Shown here one piece after another: positions 12,001-56,200 of a DNA stretch of 64,000 nucleotides. A program made the position numbers and the translations under genes. Under the pieces are notes generated by a model. The model did not search any database. It saw only the letters and a list, made by a program, of their open reading frames with translations, and was not told the DNA's origin. Each line of letters starts with the position of its first letter. Position 1 is the first letter of the stretch. The stretch covers positions 4,011,018 through 4,075,017 of the forward strand of contig OZ220696.1 of NCBI GenBank assembly GCA_965116495.1, in the 5' to 3' direction. This DNA is from Gammaproteobacteria bacterium (GTDB taxonomy: Bacteria > Pseudomonadota > Gammaproteobacteria > Eutrophobiales > Eutrophobiaceae).

Positions 12001-14095
12001 TTAACCCAAGTTTACCAAGATTCACTGGCATTTAGTTGGATGTTGCTATTTTCTGCCGGGTTCGTCATCGTAACGCATTGATTTTTGGTGAGTGACGGGT
12101 TGTCTGGCCATTGTAGTGCCATAATATGAATATTTATATTGACATCGGTGTGGTAGAGCGGTATCCTCTCCCCCTATGTTCATCCGCCGTACCCTCACCC
12201 GCCGTACCGACGGCCAGGCCTATTACTCCCACCGCCTGGTGCACAGTGAGCGCGCGGGCACCAAGGTGCGCCAACGCACCCTGCTGAACCTCGGCAGCGA
12301 GTTTGCTATCGACAAACAACACTGGCCGACCCTGTGCCAACGTATTGAGGCGTTGCGCCAGGGCCAGACGTCGCTGCTGGCGAGCCTGCCCGCCGGCGTG
12401 GAGAGTGCGGCACAACAGATTAGCGCCCAACTGCTGGCCCGGTCTCGACCGGACGAGACGGGAACGGCGCCGGCGTGGATGGCAGTCGATCTGGACTCGC
12501 TGGCCTTGACCCGCCCGCGCAGCGTGGGCGTGGAGCAGGTGGGGTTGTGGGCCCTGGCACAGGTGGGGCTGGACGAGTTACTCGCGGCACAGGGCGTCAA
12601 TGCATCCCTGCGCGCCGCCACCATCGGCTCCATCGTGGGCCGGCTGGCGTGCCCGGCCTCGGAGCGGGCCACCCATGCCTGGTTATGCGAGCGCAGTGCC
12701 CTGGGCGAGTTGCTGGACGTGAACTTCGAACGCATGGGCGCCATGCAGTTGTACCGGGCTTCCGATGCGCTGCTCAAACACCGTGCGGTCATTGAGACAC
12801 ACCTGTTCGCGCAGGCCATGGACTTGTTTGACCTGGCGCCGACGGTCACCCTGTATGACCTGACCAACACCTACTACGAGGGCGAGGCCCACGGGCAGCC
12901 GCTGGCGCAGCGCGGCCATTCGAAAGAGAAACGCAGCGACTGCAAGCTGCTCACCCTGGGGCTGGTGCTCGATGCGAGCGGCTTCGTGCGCCGTTCACGG
13001 GTGTTTGCCGGCAACGTGCGCGAGGAGACCACCCTGGCCGGGATGCTGGAGGCGCTCAAGACCCCGCCGGGGGCCTTGGTCATTCTCGACCGGGGCATCG
13101 CCACCGAGGCGCAGGTCACCTGGCTCAAGGATAACGACTACCGTTACATCGTGGTGAGCCGGGAACAACAGCGCCGGTTCGACGTGGACGCCGCCCTGGC
13201 CCATCGTACCCGTGGGGGCGAGACGGTCCAACTGGAGCAGGTGGCCGATGCCAAGGCCGGTGAGGTGCGCCTGTACTGTTACTCGGCGGCGCGGGCCGAG
13301 AAAGAGCGCGCCATCGCCGAACGCTTCATGGCGCGCTTTGAGCAGGGCCTCAGCGCGCTGCACGAGGGCCTGTCCCGGCCGCGTACGCGCAAGCAGCCAG
13401 GCTACGTCCGGGAACGTATCGGACGCTTGAAAGCCCGCAGCCACGGCATCGGCCAGCACTATACCATCGAGGTCGACACCGATGCCAAGGGCCAACGGGC
13501 CGTGGCCGTACGCTGGCAGCGCCAGCCGGTCACCGGCTCGATGCTCACCCACCCCGGCATCTATTGCCTGCGCAGCAACCTCACCGACTGGGATGAGGCG
13601 CGGCTGTGGCAGACCTACACCCTGCTCACCGACATCGAAGCAGTGTTCCGCGCCTTGAAATCCGAGCTGGGATTGCGCCCCATCTATCACCGCACGCCCC
13701 GACGCGCCGAGGGCCACCTGTTCATCACCGTCATCGCCTACCAACTGGTCCAGGTGGTCCGCCGTCGTCTGGCCGCGCACGGCGATGAATCCTGCCGCAA
13801 CGCAAGTTGGACCACGCTGCGGCGCATCCTCGGCGCCCGTCAGCGGGTGACCGCCACGGTCCGGCGCAAAGACGGACGTACCGTGCACGTGCGCAAGGCC
13901 ACCCGTCCGGAACCGCCGCAACAGGCCATCCTGGACGCCTTGGGAATTCGTGGACCACCCGGCGGTACGCAGAAAGAGATCGTCTGAGTACAGCGTCCGC
14001 AACATGGCGCGAATGTAGTGCCATAAGCGGAATTATGTCAATCTAACCCATTGACATATAACGATTTATTTTTTAGATTGGTAAACTTGGGTTAA
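12001..14095 (+). mobile_element. IS1634-family (IS4-related) insertion sequence, apparently intact
   Basis: Perfect 18-bp terminal inverted repeats ttaacccaagtttaccaa (12001-12018) / ttggtaaacttgggttaa (14078-14095) flank a single 603-aa transposase ORF. Confidence 0.85.
12176..13987 (+). CDS. IS1634 family transposase (DDE)
   Basis: N-terminus MFIRRTLTRRTDGQAYYSHRLVHSER is typical of IS1634 transposases; 603 aa. Confidence 0.88.
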   Translation: MFIRRTLTRRTDGQAYYSHRLVHSERAGTKVRQRTLLNLGSEFAIDKQHWPTLCQRIEALRQGQTSLLASLPAGVESAAQQISAQLLARSRPDETGTAPAWMAVDLDSLALTRPRSVGVEQVGLWALAQVGLDELLAAQGVNASLRAATIGSIVGRLACPASERATHAWLCERSALGELLDVNFERMGAMQLYRASDALLKHRAVIETHLFAQAMDLFDLAPTVTLYDLTNTYYEGEAHGQPLAQRGHSKEKRSDCKLLTLGLVLDASGFVRRSRVFAGNVREETTLAGMLEALKTPPGALVILDRGIATEAQVTWLKDNDYRYIVVSREQQRRFDVDAALAHRTRGGETVQLEQVADAKAGEVRLYCYSAARAEKERAIAERFMARFEQGLSALHEGLSRPRTRKQPGYVRERIGRLKARSHGIGQHYTIEVDTDAKGQRAVAVRWQRQPVTGSMLTHPGIYCLRSNLTDWDEARLWQTYTLLTDIEAVFRALKSELGLRPIYHRTPRRAEGHLFITVIAYQLVQVVRRRLAAHGDESCRNASWTTLRRILGARQRVTATVRRKDGRTVHVRKATRPEPPQQAILDALGIRGPPGGTQKEIV

Positions 14096-14152
14096 GATAT
14101 AACCCGAAGCGGCCCCTGAGGGGTCAGGCCAGTCCAGATTTATCTTCTGATT

Positions 14153-14449
14153 TTACGCAACGGCTGAAATCTGGTTAAGTGTCTTACCCAATATTTTACT
14201 GGCTTCTTCCAGATCATCATCACCCTGTAATCCCAACCAGAATTTTTCACTATTACCAAAATAACGGGCAAGACGTAACGCCGTGTCCGCGGTAATTGCC
14301 CGCTTGCCAAGAACGATTTCATTTATTCGTCTCGGCGGAACAGAAATATCTCTGGCCAGTTTATTCTGGCTGATACCCATCGGCTGCAAAAATTTATGGA
14401 GGAGAATATCGCCGGGATGGATATTTTTTAGTCTCGTCATCTGTTTCAC
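14153..14449 (-). CDS. higA: HigA family antitoxin (XRE HTH)
   Basis: NIHPGDILL...GISQNKLARDISVPPRRINEIVLGKRAITADTALRLARYFGNS. The likely true start is the ATG at 14440. Confidence 0.85.
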   Translation of the reverse strand: MKQMTRLKNIHPGDILLHKFLQPMGISQNKLARDISVPPRRINEIVLGKRAITADTALRLARYFGNSEKFWLGLQGDDDLEEASKILGKTLNQISAVA

Positions 14450-14506
14450 CTAATGATAATCAACGATTTCAACTTGATATGCATTGCAGCCAAAACAGGG
14501 AAATTC
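14450..14506 (-). pseudogene. higB: HigB toxin remnant (last 18 codons)
   Basis: The minus strand reads EFPCFGCNAYQVEIVDYH* and ends immediately upstream of higA. There is an in-frame stop upstream, and only ~40 bp separate it from the czcA stop. Confidence 0.55.
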
Positions 14507-14548
14507 TTAAACCGCAGGTGGATCAGGTTACGGGGAGAGGGTCAATGC

Positions 14549-17500
14549 TTACCCAACATGGGCTGTCTCCTTAGGCATGTGAGGCTCATTGCGATGCAGC
14601 ATCCGATAAAGCGCCGGGATCACAAACAACGTCAGTAAGGTGGATGAAATCACACCGCCAATCACCACGGTGGCCAACGGTCGTTGCACTTCCGAACCGA
14701 TACCGGTATTCAGTGCCATGGGAACAAAGCCCAGGGAGGCGACAAGTGCTGTGGTAAGCACCGGACGCAAACGTGTTAAGGCACCTTCGGTAATGGCCTG
14801 ATCCAAAGGTAATTTATCTTTGATCAATTCCCGGATAAACGACACCATCACCAGGCCGTTGAGAACAGCGATACCCGACAGTGCGATAAATCCCACAGCA
14901 GCGGAAATGGAAAAGGGAATATCCCGCAACATCAGCGCAGCAACGCCGCCGGTCAACGCCAGCGGCACACCAGAAAAAATAATCATGGCGTCTTTAAAAG
15001 ATCCCAGTGCCAGCACCAACAAGCCAACGATCATGAGCAGTGTGACTGGCACCACAATCGACAGACGCTGTGAGGCCGACTGCAATTTCTGATAGGTGCC
15101 GCCGTACTCCACCCAGTAACCCGCAGGCAGTTCTACCGAGTTGTTAATGGCGCTCTGAATATCCGCTACAAAACTCCCCAGATCACGGTCCCGCACGTTG
15201 GCGGTAACCACAACTCGGCGCTTGCCGTTTTCACGGTTAATCTGATTGACCCCTTCCATGCTCTCCAGTGTCGCCAGCTCCTGCAAGGGAACACTCATAC
15301 CATCGGATAGATGGATGGGTAGACGGAGCATGGCATCCACATCATTACGCAGAGACTCATCGAGTCGCACAACGATATCCGCACGCCGGTCTCCCTCGTA
15401 AAACTTGCCAGCTACACGCCCACCAAAGGCCGTCGCCAGTTGTTCCTGTACCTCCATTTTACTGACACCATACTGGGCCAGCTTGTCCAGCTTCGGTACG
15501 ATCACCAGCATCGGTAGGCCGGTGGTCTGTTCCGCCTGCACATCGGCAATACCCTCAACAGCCCCTATAGCAGCTTCAATAGCATCACCCAGTGTCGCTA
15601 GCATCTCCAGGTCATCTCCAAACACTTTAATGGCCAGCTCCGCCCGCACACCGGACAACAGCTCGTTAAAACGCATTTGAATCGGCTGCAAAAATTCGTA
15701 GCGGTTGCCGGGAATATCGCTGACCAATGCATCCAGCTCAGCCACTACTTGATTTTTGGGTTTACTCGGGTCGGGCCACTGATCGCGGGGTTTCAGAATA
15801 ATAAAATTGTCCGCCACGCTAGGGGGTACCGCATCGGTAGCGACATCCGCCGTACCGATTTTGGCGAAGACCCGCTCAACTTCCGGCAGGGCTTTAATGC
15901 GCTCTTCCAACGTCTCCTGCATGGCAATCGCCTGGCTCAGGGACGTTCCAGGAATGCGCAGTGCGTGCATGGCAATATCACCTTCGTCCAGATTGGGCGC
16001 AAATTCGCTGCCCAGACGCGTCGCGCCAAAACCACTGATGATAACCAAAAGCGTGGCAAGTCCAACAAACAGCCCACGATGATTGAGCACCCAAGCCAAT
16101 GCAGGCTGATACAGCGATAATGCACCACTGGTAATAACATTGCGCTTTTCCTGCACCGGTTTTTTAAACAGCAGCGCAATCATCGCTGGAACAAAGGTGA
16201 CAGACAGCACCATAGCACTGAGCAGGGCTATCACCACGGTAATGGCCATCGGATGGAACATTTTGCCCTCGGTACCTTCCAAGGCAAAAATCGGCAGGTA
16301 GACCGCGGTGATAATGAATACACCAAATAGCGCTGGTCGTATGACTTCGCGGGTTGCTTCAAACACCAATTCGAGACGTTCACGAACCGCCAGCACTTGT
16401 CCGCTGGCACTGGACTGACTTAGTCGCCGCAGGCAGTTTTCAACAATAATAATGGCACCATCAACCAGCAAGCCAAAATCCAGAGCGCCGAGGCTCATCA
16501 GGTTGGCGCTGACCCGCGTTTGCACCATGCCGGTGATGGTCATCAGCATGGCGAAGGGAATCACCAACGCGGTCAGAAACGCCGCACGGATATTGCCCAG
16601 CAACAGGAACAAAATAACGATAACCAGCAGCGCCCCTTCGGCCAGGTTGGTCTGCACGGTGGTCAGGGTTTTATCCACCAGTTTGGTTCGATCATAAACC
16701 GCCGTCGCCGCCACTCCTTCCGGCAGGTTCTCATTGATCTCCTTCAGCTTTTCAGCGACGCCATTGGCAACGGTGCGACTGTTTTCGCCAATCAGAATAA
16801 ACACCGTACTCATGACCACTTCACGCCCGTTCTGTGTTGCCGCGCCGATACGTAGTCCTTTCCCTTCACTGACCTGCGCCACATCAGCGATTCTGACTGT
16901 GGCACCATCCTGAGTGGCGAGGGGAATCTGGCTGATATCGTCGATGACTTCCGCCTGTCCGGGGATTCGCATCAACCACTGGGCACCGTTGCGCTCTATA
17001 AACCCGGTACCCTGATTGCTGTTATTAGCGTTGATCGCCGCCACCACATCGGCTTGGGTCAAGCCAAATGCCAGCAGACGTGCCGGATCAAAGGCGACCA
17101 GAATCTCGCGCTCGTAGCCACCGATGGGATTGACTTCCACCACGCCGGGCACCCGCATCAGTTGCGGGCGAATAATCCAGTCATGCACCGCGCGCAGGTC
17201 CATGGGCGTAATGGGGTGGCCGTCTTCGTTGGTGGCGCCGGGTTCGGCATCTACCGTGAACATAAAGATCTCACCGAGACCGGTGGCAATCGGCCCCATT
17301 TCAGGCTCCAGTCCACTCGGCAGTCTGGAGCGGGCGGCCGAAAGCCGCTCATTGACCAGCTGGCGGGCAAAATAGATATCGGTGTCATCGCTAAAAACAG
17401 CGACCACCTGTGACAGCCCATAGCGGGAGACCGAGCGGGTATGTGCTAATCCGGGCAATCCCGCTAACGAGGTTTCCAGCGGCAGGAAGCGCTGTTCCAC

Positions 17501-47421: not shown

Positions 47422-47793
47422 CTAGCGCTGGTTCGATTTCTCCATCATAAGCAACGGCAACAAGCGCCGGATAGCCCCGTTCTTTATTCTCTCTACCGCA
47501 CCCGTAAAGAATTCGGGGTTGACCCCGTTGTCCGTCAGGGCGGTTTGCAGTTCGGCCAGGATCGAACTGCAGGATTCAACCGCATTGCCTGCGATGACGC
47601 GAATATCGGGACTGGACGCCACATGCTGCCGTGCGTTTTCCTGCAAACAGCTTGTATATGCCAGGTTTGTTTCGCCCATCAACATCATATCTGCGCTGTC
47701 AAACGAGTTTCTCAGCGGCGTTTCCGCAAATGCCGCAACGCCGGTAAGATACAGGAACATTATTAGCCCGTATTTCCTGCCGGGGCTAACCAT
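47422..47793 (-). CDS. Hypothetical secreted protein
   Basis: Signal-peptide-like N-terminus (MVSPGRKYGLIMFLYLTGVAAFA). I recognise no family. Confidence 0.4.
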   Translation of the reverse strand: MVSPGRKYGLIMFLYLTGVAAFAETPLRNSFDSADMMLMGETNLAYTSCLQENARQHVASSPDIRVIAGNAVESCSSILAELQTALTDNGVNPEFFTGAVERIKNGAIRRLLPLLMMEKSNQR

Positions 47794-48262
47794 GGTCTTC
47801 CAGCAAACTGCGCAGCATCCAGGCATTCTTTTCGTGAATTTGCATGCGTTGCGTCAACAGGTCCGCCGATGGTTCGTCATTGGCGCTCTCCACTACCGGG
47901 AAAATACTCCTGGCTGTCTTGACCACCGCTTCCTGGCCCTGGACCAGTTGCCGTATCATCTCCTGTGCACCGGGCACCCCGGTTTCTTCCGGGATCGAAG
48001 ACAACCGGCTGAATTGCTGATAAGACCCCGGCGCCGCTACCCCGAGCGCCCTGATACGCTCAGCGATCTCATCCACTGCCGTCGCCAGCTCCGTATAGTG
48101 CTGTTCGAACAAGGTGTGCAAGGTAGTGAACATAGGTCCGGTCACGTTCCAATGAAAATTATGTGTCTTCAGGTACAGTGTATAACTGTCGGCAAGCAAC
48201 CTGGACAAACCTTCGGCTATCTGTTGCCGCTGGTTTTCGGAAATACCAATATCTATCTGCAT
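47786..48262 (-). CDS. dps: Dps family DNA starvation/stationary-phase protection protein
   Basis: LYLKTHNFHWNVTGPMFTTLHTLFEQHY ferroxidase-centre motif. The start is trimmed to MQIDIG. Confidence 0.9.
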   Translation of the reverse strand: MQIDIGISENQRQQIAEGLSRLLADSYTLYLKTHNFHWNVTGPMFTTLHTLFEQHYTELATAVDEIAERIRALGVAAPGSYQQFSRLSSIPEETGVPGAQEMIRQLVQGQEAVVKTARSIFPVVESANDEPSADLLTQRMQIHEKNAWMLRSLLEDHG

Positions 48263-48384
48263 GTTTACCTCCTGTTCAATAGCGTGTTTGCCTGATTTAA
48301 AAACAGCATAGCGCAATATCGGGGATAACGATATTTTTAATATTTAATGGAATCGATAGATTAAATTAATCGATGACGATATTC

Positions 48385-48459
48385 GGGGTCAGAGTAAAAA
48401 TACCTGATAGTACAGCAACGGTAACGCTACCGGATTGACCGTATTTTTACTCTGACCCC
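48385..48459. repeat. REP family A, long-loop copy
   Basis: ggggtcagagtaaaaata...tatttttactctgacccc with a ~40-nt loop. Confidence 0.85.
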
Positions 48460-48526
48460 AGGTTTCCGGCAGGAGTCAGGGAACTGCTGCAATACAAGTG
48501 ATCTGATTTTCATATAAACTGTTGCC

Positions 48527-49054
48527 ATGTATAGGGATGCCGTCACACTCGCAAAGACTTATTTTTATATCTGCCTGTTGAAGTACCGGCCCCAGGATGT
48601 TCCCGCTTCCCGGGAATTACTGGTAATCAGCGTCGGTATTTATTTTCTGCTTGGTTACGTGTTGGCGGGGCTGGATGAGAACATAGTGAATGCGCTGCCG
48701 GCAGCCATGGTCGATACCGTGTTTTTACTGGCATTCACCCTGTTACTTCTGTTGTTGCGCCGTATGCCGGGCAGGTGGATACAGACGGCAACGGCATTGG
48801 CAGGTACCGGGATAGTGTTTGGCCTGCTGCTCATGCCCGGTATCGTAATCCTGTCCGAATCCGGCCCGGTGACACTCATTCAACAGATCCTGTCCATCCT
48901 GCTCTATCTTGTCCTAATCTGGTACGTGGTTGTACTGGCGCATATCTTCCGGCATGCGCTGTCGTCCTCGTTCGCACTCGGGATATTCATCTCAATGATA
49001 TACCTGTTGCTGGGGGTCTTCATCGAATTAACCATCGTATATCCGGAGCCGTGA
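48527..49054 (+). CDS. Hypothetical polytopic inner-membrane protein
   Basis: 175 aa with about five hydrophobic helices. Its stop overlaps the GTG start of mpl. Confidence 0.5.
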   Translation: MYRDAVTLAKTYFYICLLKYRPQDVPASRELLVISVGIYFLLGYVLAGLDENIVNALPAAMVDTVFLLAFTLLLLLLRRMPGRWIQTATALAGTGIVFGLLLMPGIVILSESGPVTLIQQILSILLYLVLIWYVVVLAHIFRHALSSSFALGIFISMIYLLLGVFIELTIVYPEP

Positions 49055-51014: not shown

Positions 51015-51054
51015 CGGGGCTTGACTATTGCCTTACCCCGATTTAACCAAATCC

Positions 51055-51678
51055 ATGGATCCGGCCACGCTCAGCCTGGCCGGCCTGACGCCCATGCTGG
51101 CGGTCTCTACAACGCTGCTCAGCAGTCTGTCGATAGGGATTGCCTACCTTGCCGTGCTGGTCCTGACCGGTGTAACCGTGTCCTGTACCAGGCGTTTTGT
51201 CCCGGCAGGTTTCAAATCTGTTTATGTGTTGCTGCTTGCAGCGGCCTGGGTCTCAATCATCGATTTACTGATGCAGTCCTGGTGCTATGCGCTCAGGGAC
51301 CAACTGGGTATTTACCTGTGTCTCCTGGCTATGAATACTACTCTCCTGTTCCACCTGGAGGTGTCACCGCTGCAAAAAAGTCTGAGGGAGAGTGCACTGC
51401 CCGGTCTGAAAACAGCCCTGACAGGCGTTGCCCTGCTCACTGCGACAGGCCTGTTGCGTGAATTGGCGGCCACGGGAGGCGTCCTGACGGATATCCGCGT
51501 GCTGTCCCATGTTGAACTGTTGGCATCACTGCAGCCCGTACCCATTTTCACGAGGGGATTACCCCTGTTTGGCGCCAGCGCCGGCGCGTTCATCATCTTC
51601 GGATTACTGCTGGCTGCCCTGTCACATGCCGTCCCGGGTAGAATCCGGTCTTCCAGATCAGCCGCAGACGTTGAATAA
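51055..51678 (+). CDS. Rnf-Nqr family membrane protein (RnfE/RsxE-like), orphan
   Basis: GLTPMLAVSTTLLSSLSIGIAYLAVL and LGIYLCLLAMNTTLL resemble the RnfE/RnfA repeats. It lies immediately upstream of nth, as rsxE does in the rsx-nth operon. Confidence 0.62.
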   Translation: MDPATLSLAGLTPMLAVSTTLLSSLSIGIAYLAVLVLTGVTVSCTRRFVPAGFKSVYVLLLAAAWVSIIDLLMQSWCYALRDQLGIYLCLLAMNTTLLFHLEVSPLQKSLRESALPGLKTALTGVALLTATGLLRELAATGGVLTDIRVLSHVELLASLQPVPIFTRGLPLFGASAGAFIIFGLLLAALSHAVPGRIRSSRSAADVE

Positions 51679-52327
51679 CACCAGGCGCGCACAGATCTTT
51701 TCCCTGTTGAGGCAGCACAACCCTGCGCCTGCGACGGAGCTTCGCTACACCAGTCCCTTCGAGTTGCTGGTATCCGTTATCCTGTCGGCGCAGGCGACGG
51801 ATGTCAGCGTCAACAAGGCCACGGAAAAACTGTTCAGGACGGCCAATACGCCGGAACAGTTTATCAGGCTGGGCGGGCCGGGATTGAAGCAATATATAAA
51901 ATCGATCGGCCTTTACAATACCAAAGCCGAAAACATTATCAGGACCTGCCAAATCCTGGTCGAGACCCATGCCGGCGAGGTTCCCGAGAGTCGTGAAGCA
52001 TTGGAAAAATTGCCGGGGGTCGGCAGGAAAACGGCAAACGTCATCCTCAATACCGCCTTCGGCCAGCCCACCATCGCCGTGGATACCCACATATTCCGGG
52101 TATCCAACCGCACCGGTCTGGCGCCCGGCAAAAACGTCCTGGAAGTTGAGCAGCGCCTGCTGAAGCACGTCCCCGATGAGTACAAACAGGACGCCCACCA
52201 CTGGCTGATCCTGCACGGCCGTTATACCTGCATGGCGCGCAAACCGAAGTGTGGCGAGTGCCTGATTTATGACCTGTGTGAGTGGGGGGAGAAAAGATCG
52301 TTCAGGGACATTGATTATCCAAGATGA
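51671..52327 (+). CDS. nth: Endonuclease III
   Basis: PFELLVSVILSAQATD, HhH-GPD motif LPGVGRKTANV and a C-terminal [4Fe-4S] cluster CX6CX2CX5C. TTG 51671 is the preferred start; ATG 51626 is also possible. Confidence 0.92.
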   Translation: MNNTRRAQIFSLLRQHNPAPATELRYTSPFELLVSVILSAQATDVSVNKATEKLFRTANTPEQFIRLGGPGLKQYIKSIGLYNTKAENIIRTCQILVETHAGEVPESREALEKLPGVGRKTANVILNTAFGQPTIAVDTHIFRVSNRTGLAPGKNVLEVEQRLLKHVPDEYKQDAHHWLILHGRYTCMARKPKCGECLIYDLCEWGEKRSFRDIDYPR

Positions 52328-52381
52328 TCCATTTACATTTGTTTAAAGTTGGTAAGCTGAACCAGATACACTCAAATAGGA

Positions 52382-53167
52382 ATGACCATGTCAAGTTGCT
52401 ATGATGTTTTTGCTGAATGTGTCTCCGCCATTCGAGGTGGCGAGCTCATTCAGGCCGTAAGCGCGACCGATAAGGAATATCACTTTCAAAACTGGTTTCA
52501 AGCCAGACTTGATCATATTCACCTGAATTATGATGAACCAGGACGAAATACCTATCCTGACTTTCGTTTAGTCAATGTGCCGGAAGGTTATGAAGTAAAA
52601 GGACTTGCTACGCCGGGGCGCGACAAAAATTATGACAGCAACAGCCGGATACCTGCAGGATCACACAACGGACGTACGATTTTCTACGTATTCGGACGTT
52701 ATCCCAAAGACCTCTCAGAGTTTGCAACAAACGCAGACGGCAACAAGGAATACCCTGTGATTGACCTGATTATTTGTCATGGAGATTTTTTGAATATCGA
52801 TCATGGTTATATCCATGAAAACAAGAGCATAAAGTGTTTTGGCAGTTATGGTGATATCATGATTCGAGATCGGAAAATGTACGTGGTTCCAACTCCTTAT
52901 GCCCTGACAACAGGTACGACAGGCGTTTACACTTTGATTGTACCGGGTGATTTTGCTGGCGATCCAAGGTTTGAACAAGTTGGTGATTTGGCGCGAGTTG
53001 AAGCAGAAAAGCTGGTCGTGGGTTACAGCTTTAATTTACGCACCAATGATTTGACATCCGAGACCATACCTAACCCATCCACAGGCAAAGAACATCATTT
53101 CATAGCATACAGGCTTAAAGCTCAAGGTGGGAGACCTGTGTCGATGACTATAACGGACAATACATAA
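52382..53167 (+). CDS. Hypothetical protein; candidate PD-(D/E)xK restriction endonuclease
   Basis: 261 aa, AT-rich. It has Glu32 (KEYHFQNW), Pro59-Asp60 (TYPDF) and Glu71-Val-Lys73 (YEVKG) with the spacing expected for a PD-(D/E)xK core. It sits 15 bp upstream of a DNA methyltransferase gene. An alternative start at 52388 has better SD spacing. Confidence 0.5.
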   Translation: MTMSSCYDVFAECVSAIRGGELIQAVSATDKEYHFQNWFQARLDHIHLNYDEPGRNTYPDFRLVNVPEGYEVKGLATPGRDKNYDSNSRIPAGSHNGRTIFYVFGRYPKDLSEFATNADGNKEYPVIDLIICHGDFLNIDHGYIHENKSIKCFGSYGDIMIRDRKMYVVPTPYALTTGTTGVYTLIVPGDFAGDPRFEQVGDLARVEAEKLVVGYSFNLRTNDLTSETIPNPSTGKEHHFIAYRLKAQGGRPVSMTITDNT

Positions 53168-53182
53168 GGGTAAACCAGGACT

Positions 53183-55408
53183 ATGGAAAATTCGGCTGTA
53201 ACGATTGAAGAAAATAAGGAATCTCCAGGTTGTCCCATTTCAGAGTTCGTTTCCGGCCCTAAGTCGGGACAGGCTGCGGAAACATCGCTTACCCAGAGAG
53301 ATCGCGTTAAAGCGATTGAAGTTGCCTTCCCGGTTGAAGAAATAAGCCAACTGGCAGAGCGTGAAAGCTACCGAAAAGAAATTTTCAGGCCGATCTACCA
53401 TATTCATAAGTGGTGGGCTAATCGTTTGGGTTCCGTCTTCCGGGGGATCGTATTAGGCGCCGTTTCAGCTAGCAATATTGATATATGGAAAGAATTTTAT
53501 AAAAAACATGACTTGCAGGATGTCTGTGTCCTGGATCCGTTTATGGGTAGCGGCACAACCCTTGGTGAGGCGGCGAAACTGGGTGTTAAACCGGTTGGTT
53601 GTGATATTAACCCAATAAGCACGTTCGCGGTCAGGCAGGCATTGACCAACGTAGATATTGATGAGCTGGAACGTGTATTTCATAAGCTGGAACAGGAAGT
53701 AAAGCCGGAAATTCAACGGTACTACACAACTCTTGACCGGGAAACCAATCGTCCCATTCCTGGACTGTATTATTTCTGGGTAAAGCTGGTTGAAACGCCC
53801 AGCGGCGAAACGGTGCCGCTGTTCAATTCATACATCTTCAGTAAGAATGCTTATCCAAAGCAGAAGCCATCAGCCCGGATAGTTTGTCCTTCTTGCTGGT
53901 CAGTGAACACGGGCAGATATGATGCAAGCTCTCTCCGATGCCCTCAATGCAGCCACGAGTTTAATCCGCAAAACGGTCCGTCAAATGGGCAATATGTTAC
54001 GGACAGCCTGGGCAACAAATTCAGGATTAAAGAGCTGTTACCGAAAGATGGCCGGCCCCTGCGGCACAGGCTTTATGCAATCATGGTGTTAAACAACGAG
54101 GGCGAAAAAGTTTACCTGTCACCGAATACCTATGACCTTGACTTGGTGGAAGAAGCCAGGCGGCGATTGGCAGAAGAAAATCTGCTTTTACCGCAAATGC
54201 CGGTACGCCCCGGCTACAACACCAACCAGGCAAGGGGTTATAACTATTTGTACTGGAGGGATTTTTTTAACTCAAGGCAACTGCTGTGCCTGGGTTTATT
54301 ACTGAAAAAAATCCAGGCGATAAAGAGTGAAGTGATCAGGGACCAGTTTCTCTGTTTGTTTTCCAGCACACTGGAATTCAACAATTTGTTTTGCAGTTTT
54401 AAAGGTGAAGGAACGGGCGCCGTGAGACATACGTTTTCGCATCATATCCTTAAACCTGAAAGAACTCCGCTTGAGAACAGTGTATGGGGCACTTCCAAAA
54501 GCAGCGGCACTTTTGCTTCTTTATTCAAATCCCGCTTGTTGAAGGCGAAAACATATTTGCAAACACCCTCCGAAATTTATTTCCCCGAAGATATGTTCGG
54601 GAGCATGGAAATGAAGTCGCGATACCTGGTAGCAAGCGATCCGGTTAAGCTGAAAATCACAAATTCATGGGAAGAATTCAGTCGCGCTCCAAACCGGGCA
54701 ATGGTGCTGAATGGAGACAGCGCTGCCCTGCCAATTCCTGACAAGAGTATAGATGCCGTTGTTACTGACCCGCCTTACTTTGACTTCGTTCACTACAGCG
54801 AGTTGAGTGATTTCTTCTTTGCCTGGCTAGCGCCGGTTCTGTCAAGTCGCTACCCGTTTTTTGGTCGAGCCAGCAGCTATCATAAGGATGAGGTGCAGAA
54901 CAAAGACCCTGATCAGTTCGCTACTAACCTGGGCCGCGTTTTCCGCGAATGTTACCGAGTCCTCAAGGACGACGGTGTTTTGTCCTTTAGCTTTCATCAT
55001 TCGCGTCCGGAAGGCTGGTCGGCAATCTACAAGGCGTTGTGTGAAGCAAGGTTCGCTGTGATGACTTCTTATCCCGTCCACGCTGAGATGAAGGTCGCAA
55101 GCCCCAAAACGAGCGCCAAAGAACCCATCTCCCTTGACATGATCCTGGTTTGTAAAAAACAGGAGCAGGCCGTCTCAAGCATATCCGAAGACGATATGGA
55201 AAAACTACTGTCCAGGAAAATCAAACAGGTGGAAAATGGAGGCAATCCAATCTCAAAATCGGACCGGTTTAATATCAGGGCATCGCTGCTCCTGGCTACT
55301 GCATCCAGAATGTCTTTATCCAGCGAGGGCTTTGAAAAGCTGATCAAGGAAGGACAAAACCCAGATGCTGGATTACGAAATAGAGATCAAATGGAAACCG
55401 TTGGATGA
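53183..55408 (+). CDS. Zn-ribbon-containing DNA methyltransferase, DUF1156/COG1743-like (DPPY, probably N6-adenine)
   Basis: N-terminal IYHIHKWWANR (DUF1156-like), motif I DPFMGSGTT (aa 118-126), DINP, CPSC...CPQC ribbon (aa 235-256) and motif IV TDPPY (aa 528-532). Confidence 0.8.
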   Translation: MENSAVTIEENKESPGCPISEFVSGPKSGQAAETSLTQRDRVKAIEVAFPVEEISQLAERESYRKEIFRPIYHIHKWWANRLGSVFRGIVLGAVSASNIDIWKEFYKKHDLQDVCVLDPFMGSGTTLGEAAKLGVKPVGCDINPISTFAVRQALTNVDIDELERVFHKLEQEVKPEIQRYYTTLDRETNRPIPGLYYFWVKLVETPSGETVPLFNSYIFSKNAYPKQKPSARIVCPSCWSVNTGRYDASSLRCPQCSHEFNPQNGPSNGQYVTDSLGNKFRIKELLPKDGRPLRHRLYAIMVLNNEGEKVYLSPNTYDLDLVEEARRRLAEENLLLPQMPVRPGYNTNQARGYNYLYWRDFFNSRQLLCLGLLLKKIQAIKSEVIRDQFLCLFSSTLEFNNLFCSFKGEGTGAVRHTFSHHILKPERTPLENSVWGTSKSSGTFASLFKSRLLKAKTYLQTPSEIYFPEDMFGSMEMKSRYLVASDPVKLKITNSWEEFSRAPNRAMVLNGDSAALPIPDKSIDAVVTDPPYFDFVHYSELSDFFFAWLAPVLSSRYPFFGRASSYHKDEVQNKDPDQFATNLGRVFRECYRVLKDDGVLSFSFHHSRPEGWSAIYKALCEARFAVMTSYPVHAEMKVASPKTSAKEPISLDMILVCKKQEQAVSSISEDDMEKLLSRKIKQVENGGNPISKSDRFNIRASLLLATASRMSLSSEGFEKLIKEGQNPDAGLRNRDQMETVG

Positions 55409-55579
55409 CAGCATGGCGGGTGCGCCTGTGGATCTTTGGATGTCTGATATTGTTTCGCAAACGTTCAGGACTTCATCAAGAAATTCTTTGCCCAAACCTT
55501 TACGTTGTCTCTCATACCAAACAGCAGCAGATTCTATGTCCGTTTCCGCCTCTGGCCGGAGACGTATCTCGAGACTCAC
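55344..55579 (-). pseudogene. ParE/RelE family toxin, frameshifted and probably 3'-truncated
   Basis: Frame 1 reads MSLEIRLRPEAETDIESAAVWYERQRKGLGKEFLDEVLNVCETIS. After ~55443 the family-typical continuation HPKIHRRTRHAVIQRFPFDLYFVI appears in another frame. The tail overlaps the methyltransferase 3' end. Confidence 0.6.
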
Positions 55580-55947
55580 AATCGTTGCTTGAACGCTGCT
55601 ATGACTTCACCTGCTTCACGGCCTTTGATTTTATCCACTTCATAAGCGTCCAGACGCCGATCAAGTTCAGTCCTTTGTTCATCGGTTAACGGCAAGTTGG
55701 CCAGGTTCGCAAGAACCTCCCTGGAGGCATCGAACTGTCTCAGGCTCTGGGCAGGTTCTTCCAATGCCGCAATGGTGTCATCATTGGGTATGCGGGCGTC
55801 AAACGGCAACCCCTTGCGCAGGACTAATTGGCTCAGCGCCATGCGGATATATTCTGTGGGTTTTAACCCAAGTCGGGAGAGTACGGCTTCAGCTTCGGCT
55901 TTAAGTTCCGGTTCAATTCGGATTTGCATCTGTTTGGTCCTGCTCAT
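55576..55947 (-). CDS. Antitoxin with composite architecture (RelB/DinJ-like RHH N-terminus plus 'addiction module component' C-terminus)
   Basis: The N-terminus MSRTKQMQIRIEPELKAEAEAVLSRLGLKPTEYIRMAL is DinJ/RelB-like. The C-terminus LPLTDEQRTELDRRLDAYE...EVIAAFKQRL is TIGR02574-like. A GTGA overlap couples it to the toxin gene. Confidence 0.62.
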   Translation of the reverse strand: MSRTKQMQIRIEPELKAEAEAVLSRLGLKPTEYIRMALSQLVLRKGLPFDARIPNDDTIAALEEPAQSLRQFDASREVLANLANLPLTDEQRTELDRRLDAYEVDKIKGREAGEVIAAFKQRL

Positions 55948-56200
55948 AACGATAATTGCCCTGTGTTTGCCTGGATATAGTCTGAATGAAATAGCTACCA
56001 TTTGCAATACAAATATTGCGCCGGTTCGCGGATGTCAATACTGCTTTGGGATGACACATGAAAAATAATTCCTGCGTCTGTCAGCTTGTCTGAAAATGCC
56101 CATCGAACGATACTGCCCTGTAAACGATCATCAGTACGTATTTTAAAGGAGTCAATGGAGGTGACACGTATCTACTACCTCAGTCGGGTTCTCTGATCGC

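Follow-up and report, generated by a model that had tools for sequence, protein, structure and literature searches.

Organization of the locus

The stretch of DNA studied here, 64,000 nucleotides of contig OZ220696.1 from a Gammaproteobacteria bacterium (positions 4,011,018 to 4,075,017; referred to below as the window), carries two intact, co-directional open reading frames (ORFs) between the core gene nth and the remains of a toxin gene. These frames, ORF1 and ORF2, are separated by 15 bp and lie exactly where an earlier prediction, made without database searches, had placed them (Table 1). The segment from about 52307 to 55349 is most likely a mobile two-gene type II restriction-modification (R-M) cassette, in which ORF1 would encode the endonuclease and ORF2 the methyltransferase.

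The cassette differs from its surroundings in base composition. Its GC content is 0.464 against 0.549 for the whole window, which makes it the lowest of all 3-kb windows (mean 0.548, standard deviation 0.027), approximately three standard deviations below the mean, and the original prediction of a segment more AT-rich than its flanks was thus correct. GC content is 0.44-0.50 over positions 52200-55600 and 0.53-0.60 to the left and right. At third codon positions it is 0.40 in ORF1 and 0.52 in ORF2, compared with 0.58-0.71 in mpl, nth, nhaA and mutS. The flanking 15 kb consist of core metabolism and housekeeping genes: sucAB-lpd, gltA, mdh, mpl, rnfE and nth precede the cassette, and nhaA, fdx, mutS and htpG follow it; within the window, the cassette is an ordinary accessory island amid core genes. 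No ATPase or helicase gene was found in the 15 kb on either side of it, and no controller (C) protein gene is present with it. The leader at 52307-52381 presumably carries the promoter and ribosome-binding site of the pair; it contains no consensus sigma-70 promoter, and the counts obtained in the promoter and terminator scan were those of the shuffled background.

The predicted nuclease

ORF1 had been described as a protein of no recognisable family that nevertheless carries the residues of a PD-(D/E)xK nuclease core, and both statements hold. No match was found in Pfam, NCBIfam or PADLOC, including the type II restriction-enzyme models of the latter, or in the PDB by sequence or profile search. 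A Pfam scan of 21 diverse members of the family gave 0 matches, that of ORF1 itself detected no helix-turn-helix (HTH) or other regulator domain, and no homologue was found in the phage collection. The family is large, with 3,399 matches in the 90%-clustered database and 560 clusters at 50% identity, and the public names seen for its members are 'hypothetical' or 'uncharacterized'. One RefSeq/PGAP label, 'DUF956 family protein', given to the homologue on Rhodococcus ruber plasmid pmega_3 (positions 7046-7795 of L090; compared loci are denoted by L and a number), was rejected as spurious, the score being 14.4 bits against a cut-off of 26.9.

The motifs of ORF1 are DKE at residues 30-32, PD at 59-60 and EVK at 71-73, so that E32, D60, E71 and K73 are the candidate catalytic residues judging from the sequence. 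The order E32, P59-D60, E71-V-K73 is that of a PD-(D/E)xK catalytic signature; its P-D ... E-x-K part is the most conserved feature of the protein and is retained down to 32% identity, and 82 of 84 loci have it unaltered. In an alignment that included the most distant full-length relatives (32-52% identity), D60, K73, R80, Y107, G154, G157, D158, R162, R205 and F240 were found to be invariant, and K31, P59 and E71 were at least 90% conserved. A second conserved block is specific to the family: G154-S-Y-G-D158 ... R162-D-R-K-M-Y-V (GSYGD..IRDRKMYV).

The AlphaFold (AF2) model of ORF1 built from a diverse alignment has a predicted local distance difference test score (pLDDT) of 91.5 and a predicted template modelling score (pTM) of 0.89. 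It superseded a first model from a shallow alignment, in which all sequences were more than 60% identical; that model had a pLDDT of 67 and was poor around the catalytic region. In the later model, E32 opens helix 33-45, D60 immediately precedes strand 61-63, and E71 and K73 belong to strand 68-77; this modelled placement is the expected PD-(D/E)xK layout. An extra C-terminal beta domain is also seen. A Foldseek search had been proposed as a check on the nuclease assignment, and with both models it placed EcoRV first and several HincII entries after it. The best match is weak (1eon_A, E 5e-3, probability 0.99, TM-score 0.34/0.37, or about 0.35), the next being 2rve_B and then HincII. Because no match reaches E <= 1e-3, the resemblance to the EcoRV/HincII fold is suggestive but short of proof. 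No meaningful match was obtained against viral structures.

EcoRV is a type IIP, PD-(D/E)xK blunt cutter (1eon, 2rve, 1eo3), and its likeness to ORF1, closer than that of HincII, extends to the order of the catalytic residues, E45 ... P73-D74 ... D90-x-K92 in EcoRV corresponding to E32 ... P59-D60 ... E71-x-K73 in ORF1. The spacing from E to D is 29 residues in the former and 28 in the latter, and the proteins are of similar size (245 and 261 aa). On aligning the ORF1 family with EcoRV using hhalign (the EcoRV sequence being identical to 1eo3_A), only the PD segment aligned; it did so in register, RNTYPDFRLV against QNHYPDFTLY with D60 opposite D74, and both share the local motif N-x-Y-P-D-F-x-L. 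The two proteins differ in the spacing from D to (D/E), which is 16 residues in EcoRV but 11 in ORF1, and the invariant GSYGD..IRDRKMYV block is ORF1's own. The partner methylase of EcoRV is a small Dam-like enzyme, unlike the 741-aa DUF1156-like ORF2. On the sequence motifs and the predicted structure, ORF1 is probably an EcoRV-like PD-(D/E)xK nuclease.

Linkage of the two genes

The neighbourhoods of ORF1 homologues, the comparison of which had also been suggested as a check, showed that a methylase of the ORF2 family adjoins the ORF1 relative in all 87 genome and assembly loci. The same adjacency was present on three of three plasmids whose annotation was read (Tabrizicola, Acidiphilium and Rhodococcus), a fourth plasmid match (Tomitella) being outside this count, and in 69 of 80 metagenome loci from a scan seeded with the most distant ORF1 subgroup. 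Ten of the 11 metagenome loci without the methylase have less than 900 bp of contig downstream, the side on which most copies carry it; the eleventh (L114) shows no match in its 2.1 kb of downstream sequence and extends only 176 bp upstream. In 80-82 of the 84 loci, neither gene is disrupted and the motifs are present. Since each protein has thousands of homologues and the linkage is found in essentially every locus, the pairing is beyond chance, and ORF1 and ORF2 form a strictly linked unit.

Three gene orders occur. The majority have the endonuclease gene before the methylase gene (R then M), usually with a 4-bp overlap; the reverse order (M then R) was found in seven metagenome loci, and a convergent arrangement in L081, L082 and throughout the P0314-like subgroup. 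No third gene recurs with the pair, and no other neighbour is present in more than about 10% of loci. In particular, a DUF499 ATPase and a Snf2-family helicase or helicase-nuclease are absent from the window and non-recurrent in the 80+ loci. The unit therefore consists of separate, adjacent and co-inherited endonuclease and methyltransferase genes, and the lack of a recurrent third gene leaves it with no ATPase, helicase or specificity subunit, as in type II R-M systems.

The commonest neighbours are a DUF262/GmrSD_N gene (8 loci), a gene for a MAE_28990-type HEPN protein (6 loci) and a serine resolvase gene (6 loci). In six to eight unrelated hosts, a DUF262/GmrSD_N gene (about 410 aa) and a MAE_28990/RiboL-PSP HEPN gene (about 360 aa) lie immediately downstream of the pair (L001 10987-13301, L088 4592-6936, L015, L025, L027, L040 and L050). 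L088 is an 8.2-kb MOBQ plasmid of Tabrizicola that includes these genes. They are absent from the window, and their recurrence suggests a four-gene defence islet, composed of the pair, DUF262 and HEPN, that travels together.

The predicted methyltransferase

ORF2 had been proposed to have an alpha-type domain order with a zinc ribbon, a very large insert and a DPPY motif. All of these were recovered at the residues given: HIHKWWA at 73, DPFMGSG at 118, CPSC at 235, CPQC at 253 and TDPPY at 528-532 (DPPY at 529-532). The protein scores 60.9 bits against PF01555 (N6_N4_Mtase; gathering threshold 26.7, E 2.3e-16), in two permuted stretches, one around motif I (aa ~109-189) and one in the region of motif IV (523-686). 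The motif I part also matches PF02086 (D12/Dam class, 4.3e-05). ORF2 thus has both the S-adenosylmethionine (AdoMet) motif I and the catalytic motif IV of a methyltransferase, in the alpha order of AdoMet half, insert and catalytic half, and the insert of about 270 aa between the zinc ribbon and motif IV is presumed to be the target-recognition domain (TRD). Motif IV is kept as TDPPY in 80 of 84 loci and is TDPPF in three. The D-P-P-Y form is typical of N6-adenine enzymes, N4-cytosine enzymes usually having S-P-P-Y/F. The product of ORF2 is hence probably N6-methyladenine (m6A).

The description of ORF2 as DUF1156/COG1743-like was accurate for the N-terminus but not for formal family membership. 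Its score is below the cut-off both for Pfam DUF1156 (PF06634; 17.9 bits against 24) and for NCBIfam NF042963 ('anti-phage-associated DUF1156'; 127.5 bits against 1000), and PADLOC gave only partial matches, to the models MTase_II, HmaB, DUF1156_MTase and PglXI. Some close homologues do carry precomputed PF06634 hits, which indicates that the N-terminus of ORF2 is homologous but divergent. The NF042963 alignment pairs ORF2 113-424 with profile positions 184-529; hence, the similarity runs through the zinc ribbon and the insert region.

The DUF1156/COG1743 adenine methylases of the BR/Hma (HmaB)/NF042963 group share with ORF2 the N-terminal helical HxHKWWA segment, motif I, the zinc ribbon, the large insert and the DPPY of motif IV. 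In the methylases of BREX-related (BR) systems, the TRD has been described as an insert after core strand 2, and the C-terminus as a triad of HTH-like domains (PMC12839542). The DUF1156-type profiles are about 945-975 positions long, compared with the 741 aa of ORF2, which ends near profile position 700-760; it therefore lacks the C-terminal part of the profile, presumably the HTH-like triad (PMC12839542). By these sequence comparisons, ORF2 is a compact protein distantly related to the DUF1156 methylases of BR systems.

The partners of the two groups differ as well, a DUF499 ATPase and a Snf2 helicase-nuclease in the one case and a small stand-alone nuclease in the other. The original prediction had placed DUF1156/COG1743 methylases more often in multi-gene clusters with ATPase/helicase partners, and this agrees with the clusters of ATPase and helicase-nuclease genes reported for them (PMC12839542; PMC7641849). 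In the literature consulted, their only partners are DUF499 ATPases and Snf2 helicase-nucleases (PMC12839542; PMC7641849; PMC1874659; PMC11232893). No description of the ORF1-ORF2 pair was found in the literature, although it may already have an entry in REBASE.

A 650-aa full-length paralogue of ORF2 was observed directly after the pair in L002, L003 and L010 (11150-13102) and also in L016 (~13147-14853). It is 27% identical to ORF2 (E 4e-72) and has the same HKWWA / DPFMG / zinc-ribbon / DPPYF layout. These loci belong to Pyrinomonadaceae and Acidobacteria, and the next genes encode a DrmE_C protein and then a DEAD/Helicase_C protein; a DISARM-like multigene system thus employs the compact methylase architecture as well.

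Distribution and mobility

ORF1 relatives were identified in 477 of 185,579 species-representative genomes (about 0.26%), in more than 10 phyla. The pair is carried by these 477 species of many phyla and by MOBQ and MOBF plasmids, with unrelated flanks in each context. Carriers available in culture include Lautropia dentalis KCOM 2505, Tabrizicola piscis K13M18 (on its 8.2-kb plasmid), Acidiphilium multivorum AIU301 (on pACMV2), Peribacillus sp. SCS-26 and Lysobacter sp. FW306-1B-D06B. ORF1 is 58-93% identical across Gamma-, Beta- and Alphaproteobacteria, Acidobacteria, Cyanobacteria, Chloroflexi, Firmicutes, Leptospira, Saccharibacteria and others, and about 56% identical to the copies on Actinobacterial plasmids. 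This combination of strict pairing, variable order, patchy spread across phyla, carriage on plasmids and atypical GC content is what type II R-M cassettes classically show.

Neither terminal inverted repeats nor target-site duplications were found at 52307 or 55349. A serine resolvase/invertase of about 195 aa (PF00239, 2.7e-47) adjoins the cassette in six genomes (L012, L014, L018, L029, L047 and L050) and on two plasmids (L089 6405-6992 and L088 7308-7847), and on Acidiphilium pACMV2 its gene overlaps the start of ORF1. The resolvase is a possible vehicle for cassette mobility.

Proposed assignment as a type II R-M system

The simplest reading in the original prediction was a type II R-M pair whose endonuclease is unclassified, and this is still the explanation that the evidence favours. 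According to it, ORF2 would methylate adenine (N6) in a specific DNA sequence, binding AdoMet through motif I (DPFMGSG) and carrying out catalysis with motif IV (DPPY), and the zinc ribbon and the insert of about 270 aa between its half-domains would serve as the target-recognition module. ORF1 would belong structurally to the EcoRV/HincII lineage, as a Mg2+-dependent PD-(D/E)xK endonuclease whose catalytic residues are E32, D60, E71 and K73. By cutting the ORF2 target sequence when it is unmethylated, it would restrict incoming DNA and also make loss of the cassette costly. The gene pair itself, its motifs, conservation, strict linkage and mobility are observed directly, whereas nuclease activity, the m6A product, a specificity common to both proteins and a defence or addiction phenotype are predictions. 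Transcription would proceed in the order R then M from the short leader that travels with the cassette.

Classical two-gene type II systems (e.g. EcoRI, also R then M) likewise have separate nuclease and methylase genes, sporadic spread across phyla including plasmids, atypical GC content, variable order and no ATPase. The pair differs from them in that its nuclease family is unannotated in every library searched, its methylase is unusually large and of DUF1156-like lineage, no C protein gene accompanies it, and its proteins are unusually conserved, with 55-93% identity across phyla. The suggestion of an unusual defence architecture was not upheld, as a nuclease and methylase pair is simply the type II R-M architecture; what lies in the window is a putative type II R-M system whose nuclease belongs to an unannotated family, and not a new defence architecture.

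Several points weigh against this assignment. The structural match to EcoRV is weak, with no PDB entry at E <= 1e-3, TM-scores of 0.34-0.37 and a root-mean-square deviation of 8-9.5 Å; the sequence homology of ORF1 and EcoRV is non-significant (hhalign probability 2.7%), and no PADLOC model, those for type II restriction enzymes included, matches ORF1. An identity of 60-70% across phyla is higher than is usual for type II restriction endonucleases and could stem from additional constraints, e.g. a protein-protein interface with the methylase. A palindrome-avoidance scan of 1.5 Mb of DNA, all of it from carriers, yielded no recognition site: the depletion was generic, affecting all 6-mer palindromes, with CAGCTG the lowest (observed/expected 0.52). 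Cleavage, methylation and protection are activities that we infer, and the methylase lineage is otherwise known from ATPase- and helicase-dependent systems (PMC12839542).

In the main rival model, the pair is an offshoot of the DUF1156-methylase defence systems (BR, DISARM-like), reduced to a minimum and lacking an ATPase, and ORF1 and ORF2 act as one complex. The methylase would supply target recognition and the nuclease would act only when bound to it, a logic like that of type III or IIG enzymes. ORF2 does share its architecture with the DUF1156 methylases across the insert (NF042963, HmaB, DUF1156_MTase, PglXI), and in L002/L010 its full-length paralogue has DrmE and a helicase as neighbours. 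Most copies of the pair show a 4-bp gene overlap, and the conservation of ORF1 is unusually high. Against a complex, order and orientation vary (convergent, M before R) while linkage persists, which fits two independently folding enzymes. ORF1 also stays 54-59% identical where the methylase has diverged to 41-45%, and with its 261 aa and extra C-terminal beta domain it has the size of type IIP enzymes that act on their own, such as EcoRV. Among the homologues listed, none fuses ORF1 with ORF2. The offshoot model is accordingly considered unlikely, and its more specific form, that the pair is the simplest member of the DUF1156 lineage, with the large methylase reading the target and licensing the small EcoRV-like nuclease, slightly more doubtful still. 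If true, such a licensing complex would reveal the relation of BREX-related and DISARM-like multigene systems to plain R-M, and the Pyrinomonadaceae paralogue that serves a DrmE/helicase system beside the pair would mark that evolutionary link.

It is decidedly improbable that ORF1 is no restriction nuclease at all but a DNA-binding accessory protein, a regulator, or a repair or nicking enzyme that accompanies an orphan or epigenetic methyltransferase. Such a role would be in keeping with the absence of a significant sequence match of ORF1 to any characterised nuclease family and with fold matches that all lie above E = 1e-3. It is at odds with the invariance of D60 and K73 and the near-invariance of P59 and E71, all placed on the expected secondary-structure elements, and with the fact that type II restriction endonucleases are the only consistent PDB matches. 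The lack of an HTH or other regulator domain also contradicts it, as does the mobile behaviour of the cassette, which occurs on plasmids and, within defence islands, next to GmrSD/HEPN and DISARM-like genes. Least credible of all, to the point of being nearly dismissed, is that ORF1 is a modification-dependent (type IV-like) nuclease acting on foreign modified DNA, the role of ORF2 being unrelated: adjoining DUF262/GmrSD_N and HEPN genes, typical of modification-dependent defence, occur in 6-8 loci, but these are only about 10% of the total, and a strict one-to-one linkage with a single methylase family, in all three orders, is unexpected for type IV.

If the type II assignment is true, ORF1 founds a restriction-endonuclease family unrecognised by the annotation libraries searched, and several hundred annotations of 'orphan' large methyltransferases become complete R-M systems for tools such as PADLOC. 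The pair could provide a new or useful specificity, and the DUF1156-type methylase architecture of ATPase/helicase-dependent defence would also serve in a plain two-gene format. The result would be useful for annotation and perhaps for enzyme discovery, though unsurprising to a specialist.

Boundaries of the cassette and history of the site

The limits of the cassette were determined from L009, L004 and L005, which have only the cassette in common with the window. L009, which is without nth, matches the window from about 52305-52307 to 55342, and L004 and L005 match it from about 52372 to 55345. The left edge of the shared sequence lies inside the last ~7 codons of nth (from ~52307). On the right, every copy loses similarity after 'GAAAAGCTGATCAAGG' (EKLI), at about 55349, and each copy of ORF2 ends with its own tail of 4-20 residues past EKLI; hence, the last ~19 codons of ORF2 (55350-55408) are derived from the junction and do not belong to the cassette.

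Table 1 Features of the putative R-M cassette and its immediate flanks (window coordinates)
Feature	Position	Strand	Description or evidence
ORF1	52382-53167	+	261 aa; predicted PD-(D/E)xK (EcoRV-like) restriction endonuclease
ORF2	53183-55408	+	741 aa; alpha-order DNA N6/N4 methyltransferase (predicted)
nth (endonuclease III), upstream core gene	51509-52327	+	Pfam HhH-GPD 7.5e-25, HHH, EndIII_4Fe-2S
Left end of cassette and ORF1 leader	52307-52381	+	Conserved with L008 and L009 (alignment, blastn boundaries)
Remnant of RelE/ParE-family toxin gene	55359-55579	-	PF05016 14.1 bits; tblastn with intact toxin
Antitoxin gene of decayed toxin-antitoxin module	55576-56007	-	143 aa; PF04221, PF09720, TIGR02384, TIGR02574

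The final 12 codons of ORF2 (55373-55408) are antisense to a 68-aa ORF with a ParE-like N-terminus, which had been taken for a broken toxin gene. This proved right. The remnant scores below the PF05016 threshold of 23 and is not a full-length RelE/ParE protein. In a tblastn search with the annotated, intact 99-aa toxin of Desulforapulum plasmid pHRM2a, aa 4-34 matched 55570-55478 and aa 51-76 matched 55442-55359 in another frame. A frameshift lies between ~55442 and 55478, and the gene is truncated at about residue 76 of ~99; with its homology split over two frames and ending there, it is a pseudogene. The homology stops at ~55359, and about 10 bp separate this point from the cassette's right end (~55349).

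The adjoining antitoxin gene is context and lies outside the R-M unit. In one frame, it joins a RelB/DinJ part (aa 23-99) to a TIGR02574/Unstab_antitox part (aa 99-135), the matches being PF04221 (5.1e-12, aa 26-85), PF09720 (6.6e-06, aa 99-135), TIGR02384 (4e-17) and TIGR02574 (8.2e-07). On pHRM2a, the partner of the ParE-like toxin is a stand-alone 'addiction module protein' of 74 aa, which represents the second antitoxin type; a deletion between two toxin-antitoxin (TA) modules may therefore have fused their antitoxins into the ORF in the window.

The junction between the cassette and the truncated toxin is real, as had been noted, but comparison with L008 showed the accompanying claim, that it is the scar of a recent insertion, to be only partly right. 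In this related metagenome-assembled genome, the flanking core genes of which are 73-80% identical to the window in DNA sequence, the cassette occupies the identical position at the 3' end of nth with a different downstream flank. There, BrnT/BrnA, an Xre/MbcA-type antitoxin and a DDE transposase (L008 13000-19000) replace the RelB/ParE remnant, nhaA and mutS of the window. A single recent insertion into parE was hence rejected as stated. At fourfold-degenerate sites, the two cassettes are 76-81% identical and the neighbouring core genes 57-66%; it follows that the cassette copies share a more recent ancestor than their hosts, though they occupy the same site. This suggests that the 3' end of nth is a recombination hotspot or has acquired the cassette repeatedly, and that the TA-rich DNA downstream has turned over independently; in the lineage of the window and L008 the nth 3' flank is a variable, TA-rich hotspot.

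Other observations

The longest ORF for nth overlaps the end of an rnfE-like gene (51028-51678) by 170 bp, and its HhH-GPD domain begins only at residue 88, so the true start of nth is probably an internal Met. Cassette-associated sequence encodes part of the C-terminal residues of nth past the Fe-S cluster motif (…SFRDIDYPR).

A second, smaller dip in GC content (0.42-0.46) is present at 48000-48600 of the window, upstream of mpl. It covers the end of a 258-aa ORF (47519-48295, + strand) and the start of a 175-aa hydrophobic ORF (48527-49054), neither of which has a Pfam match.

L005 and L004 represent the same locus in two assemblies and differ by four tandem 114-bp units (L005 6231-6674). 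These units, called as four 37-aa ORFs, lie between IF-2B-like and Beta_elim_lyase genes and are either a tandem expansion or an assembly artefact.

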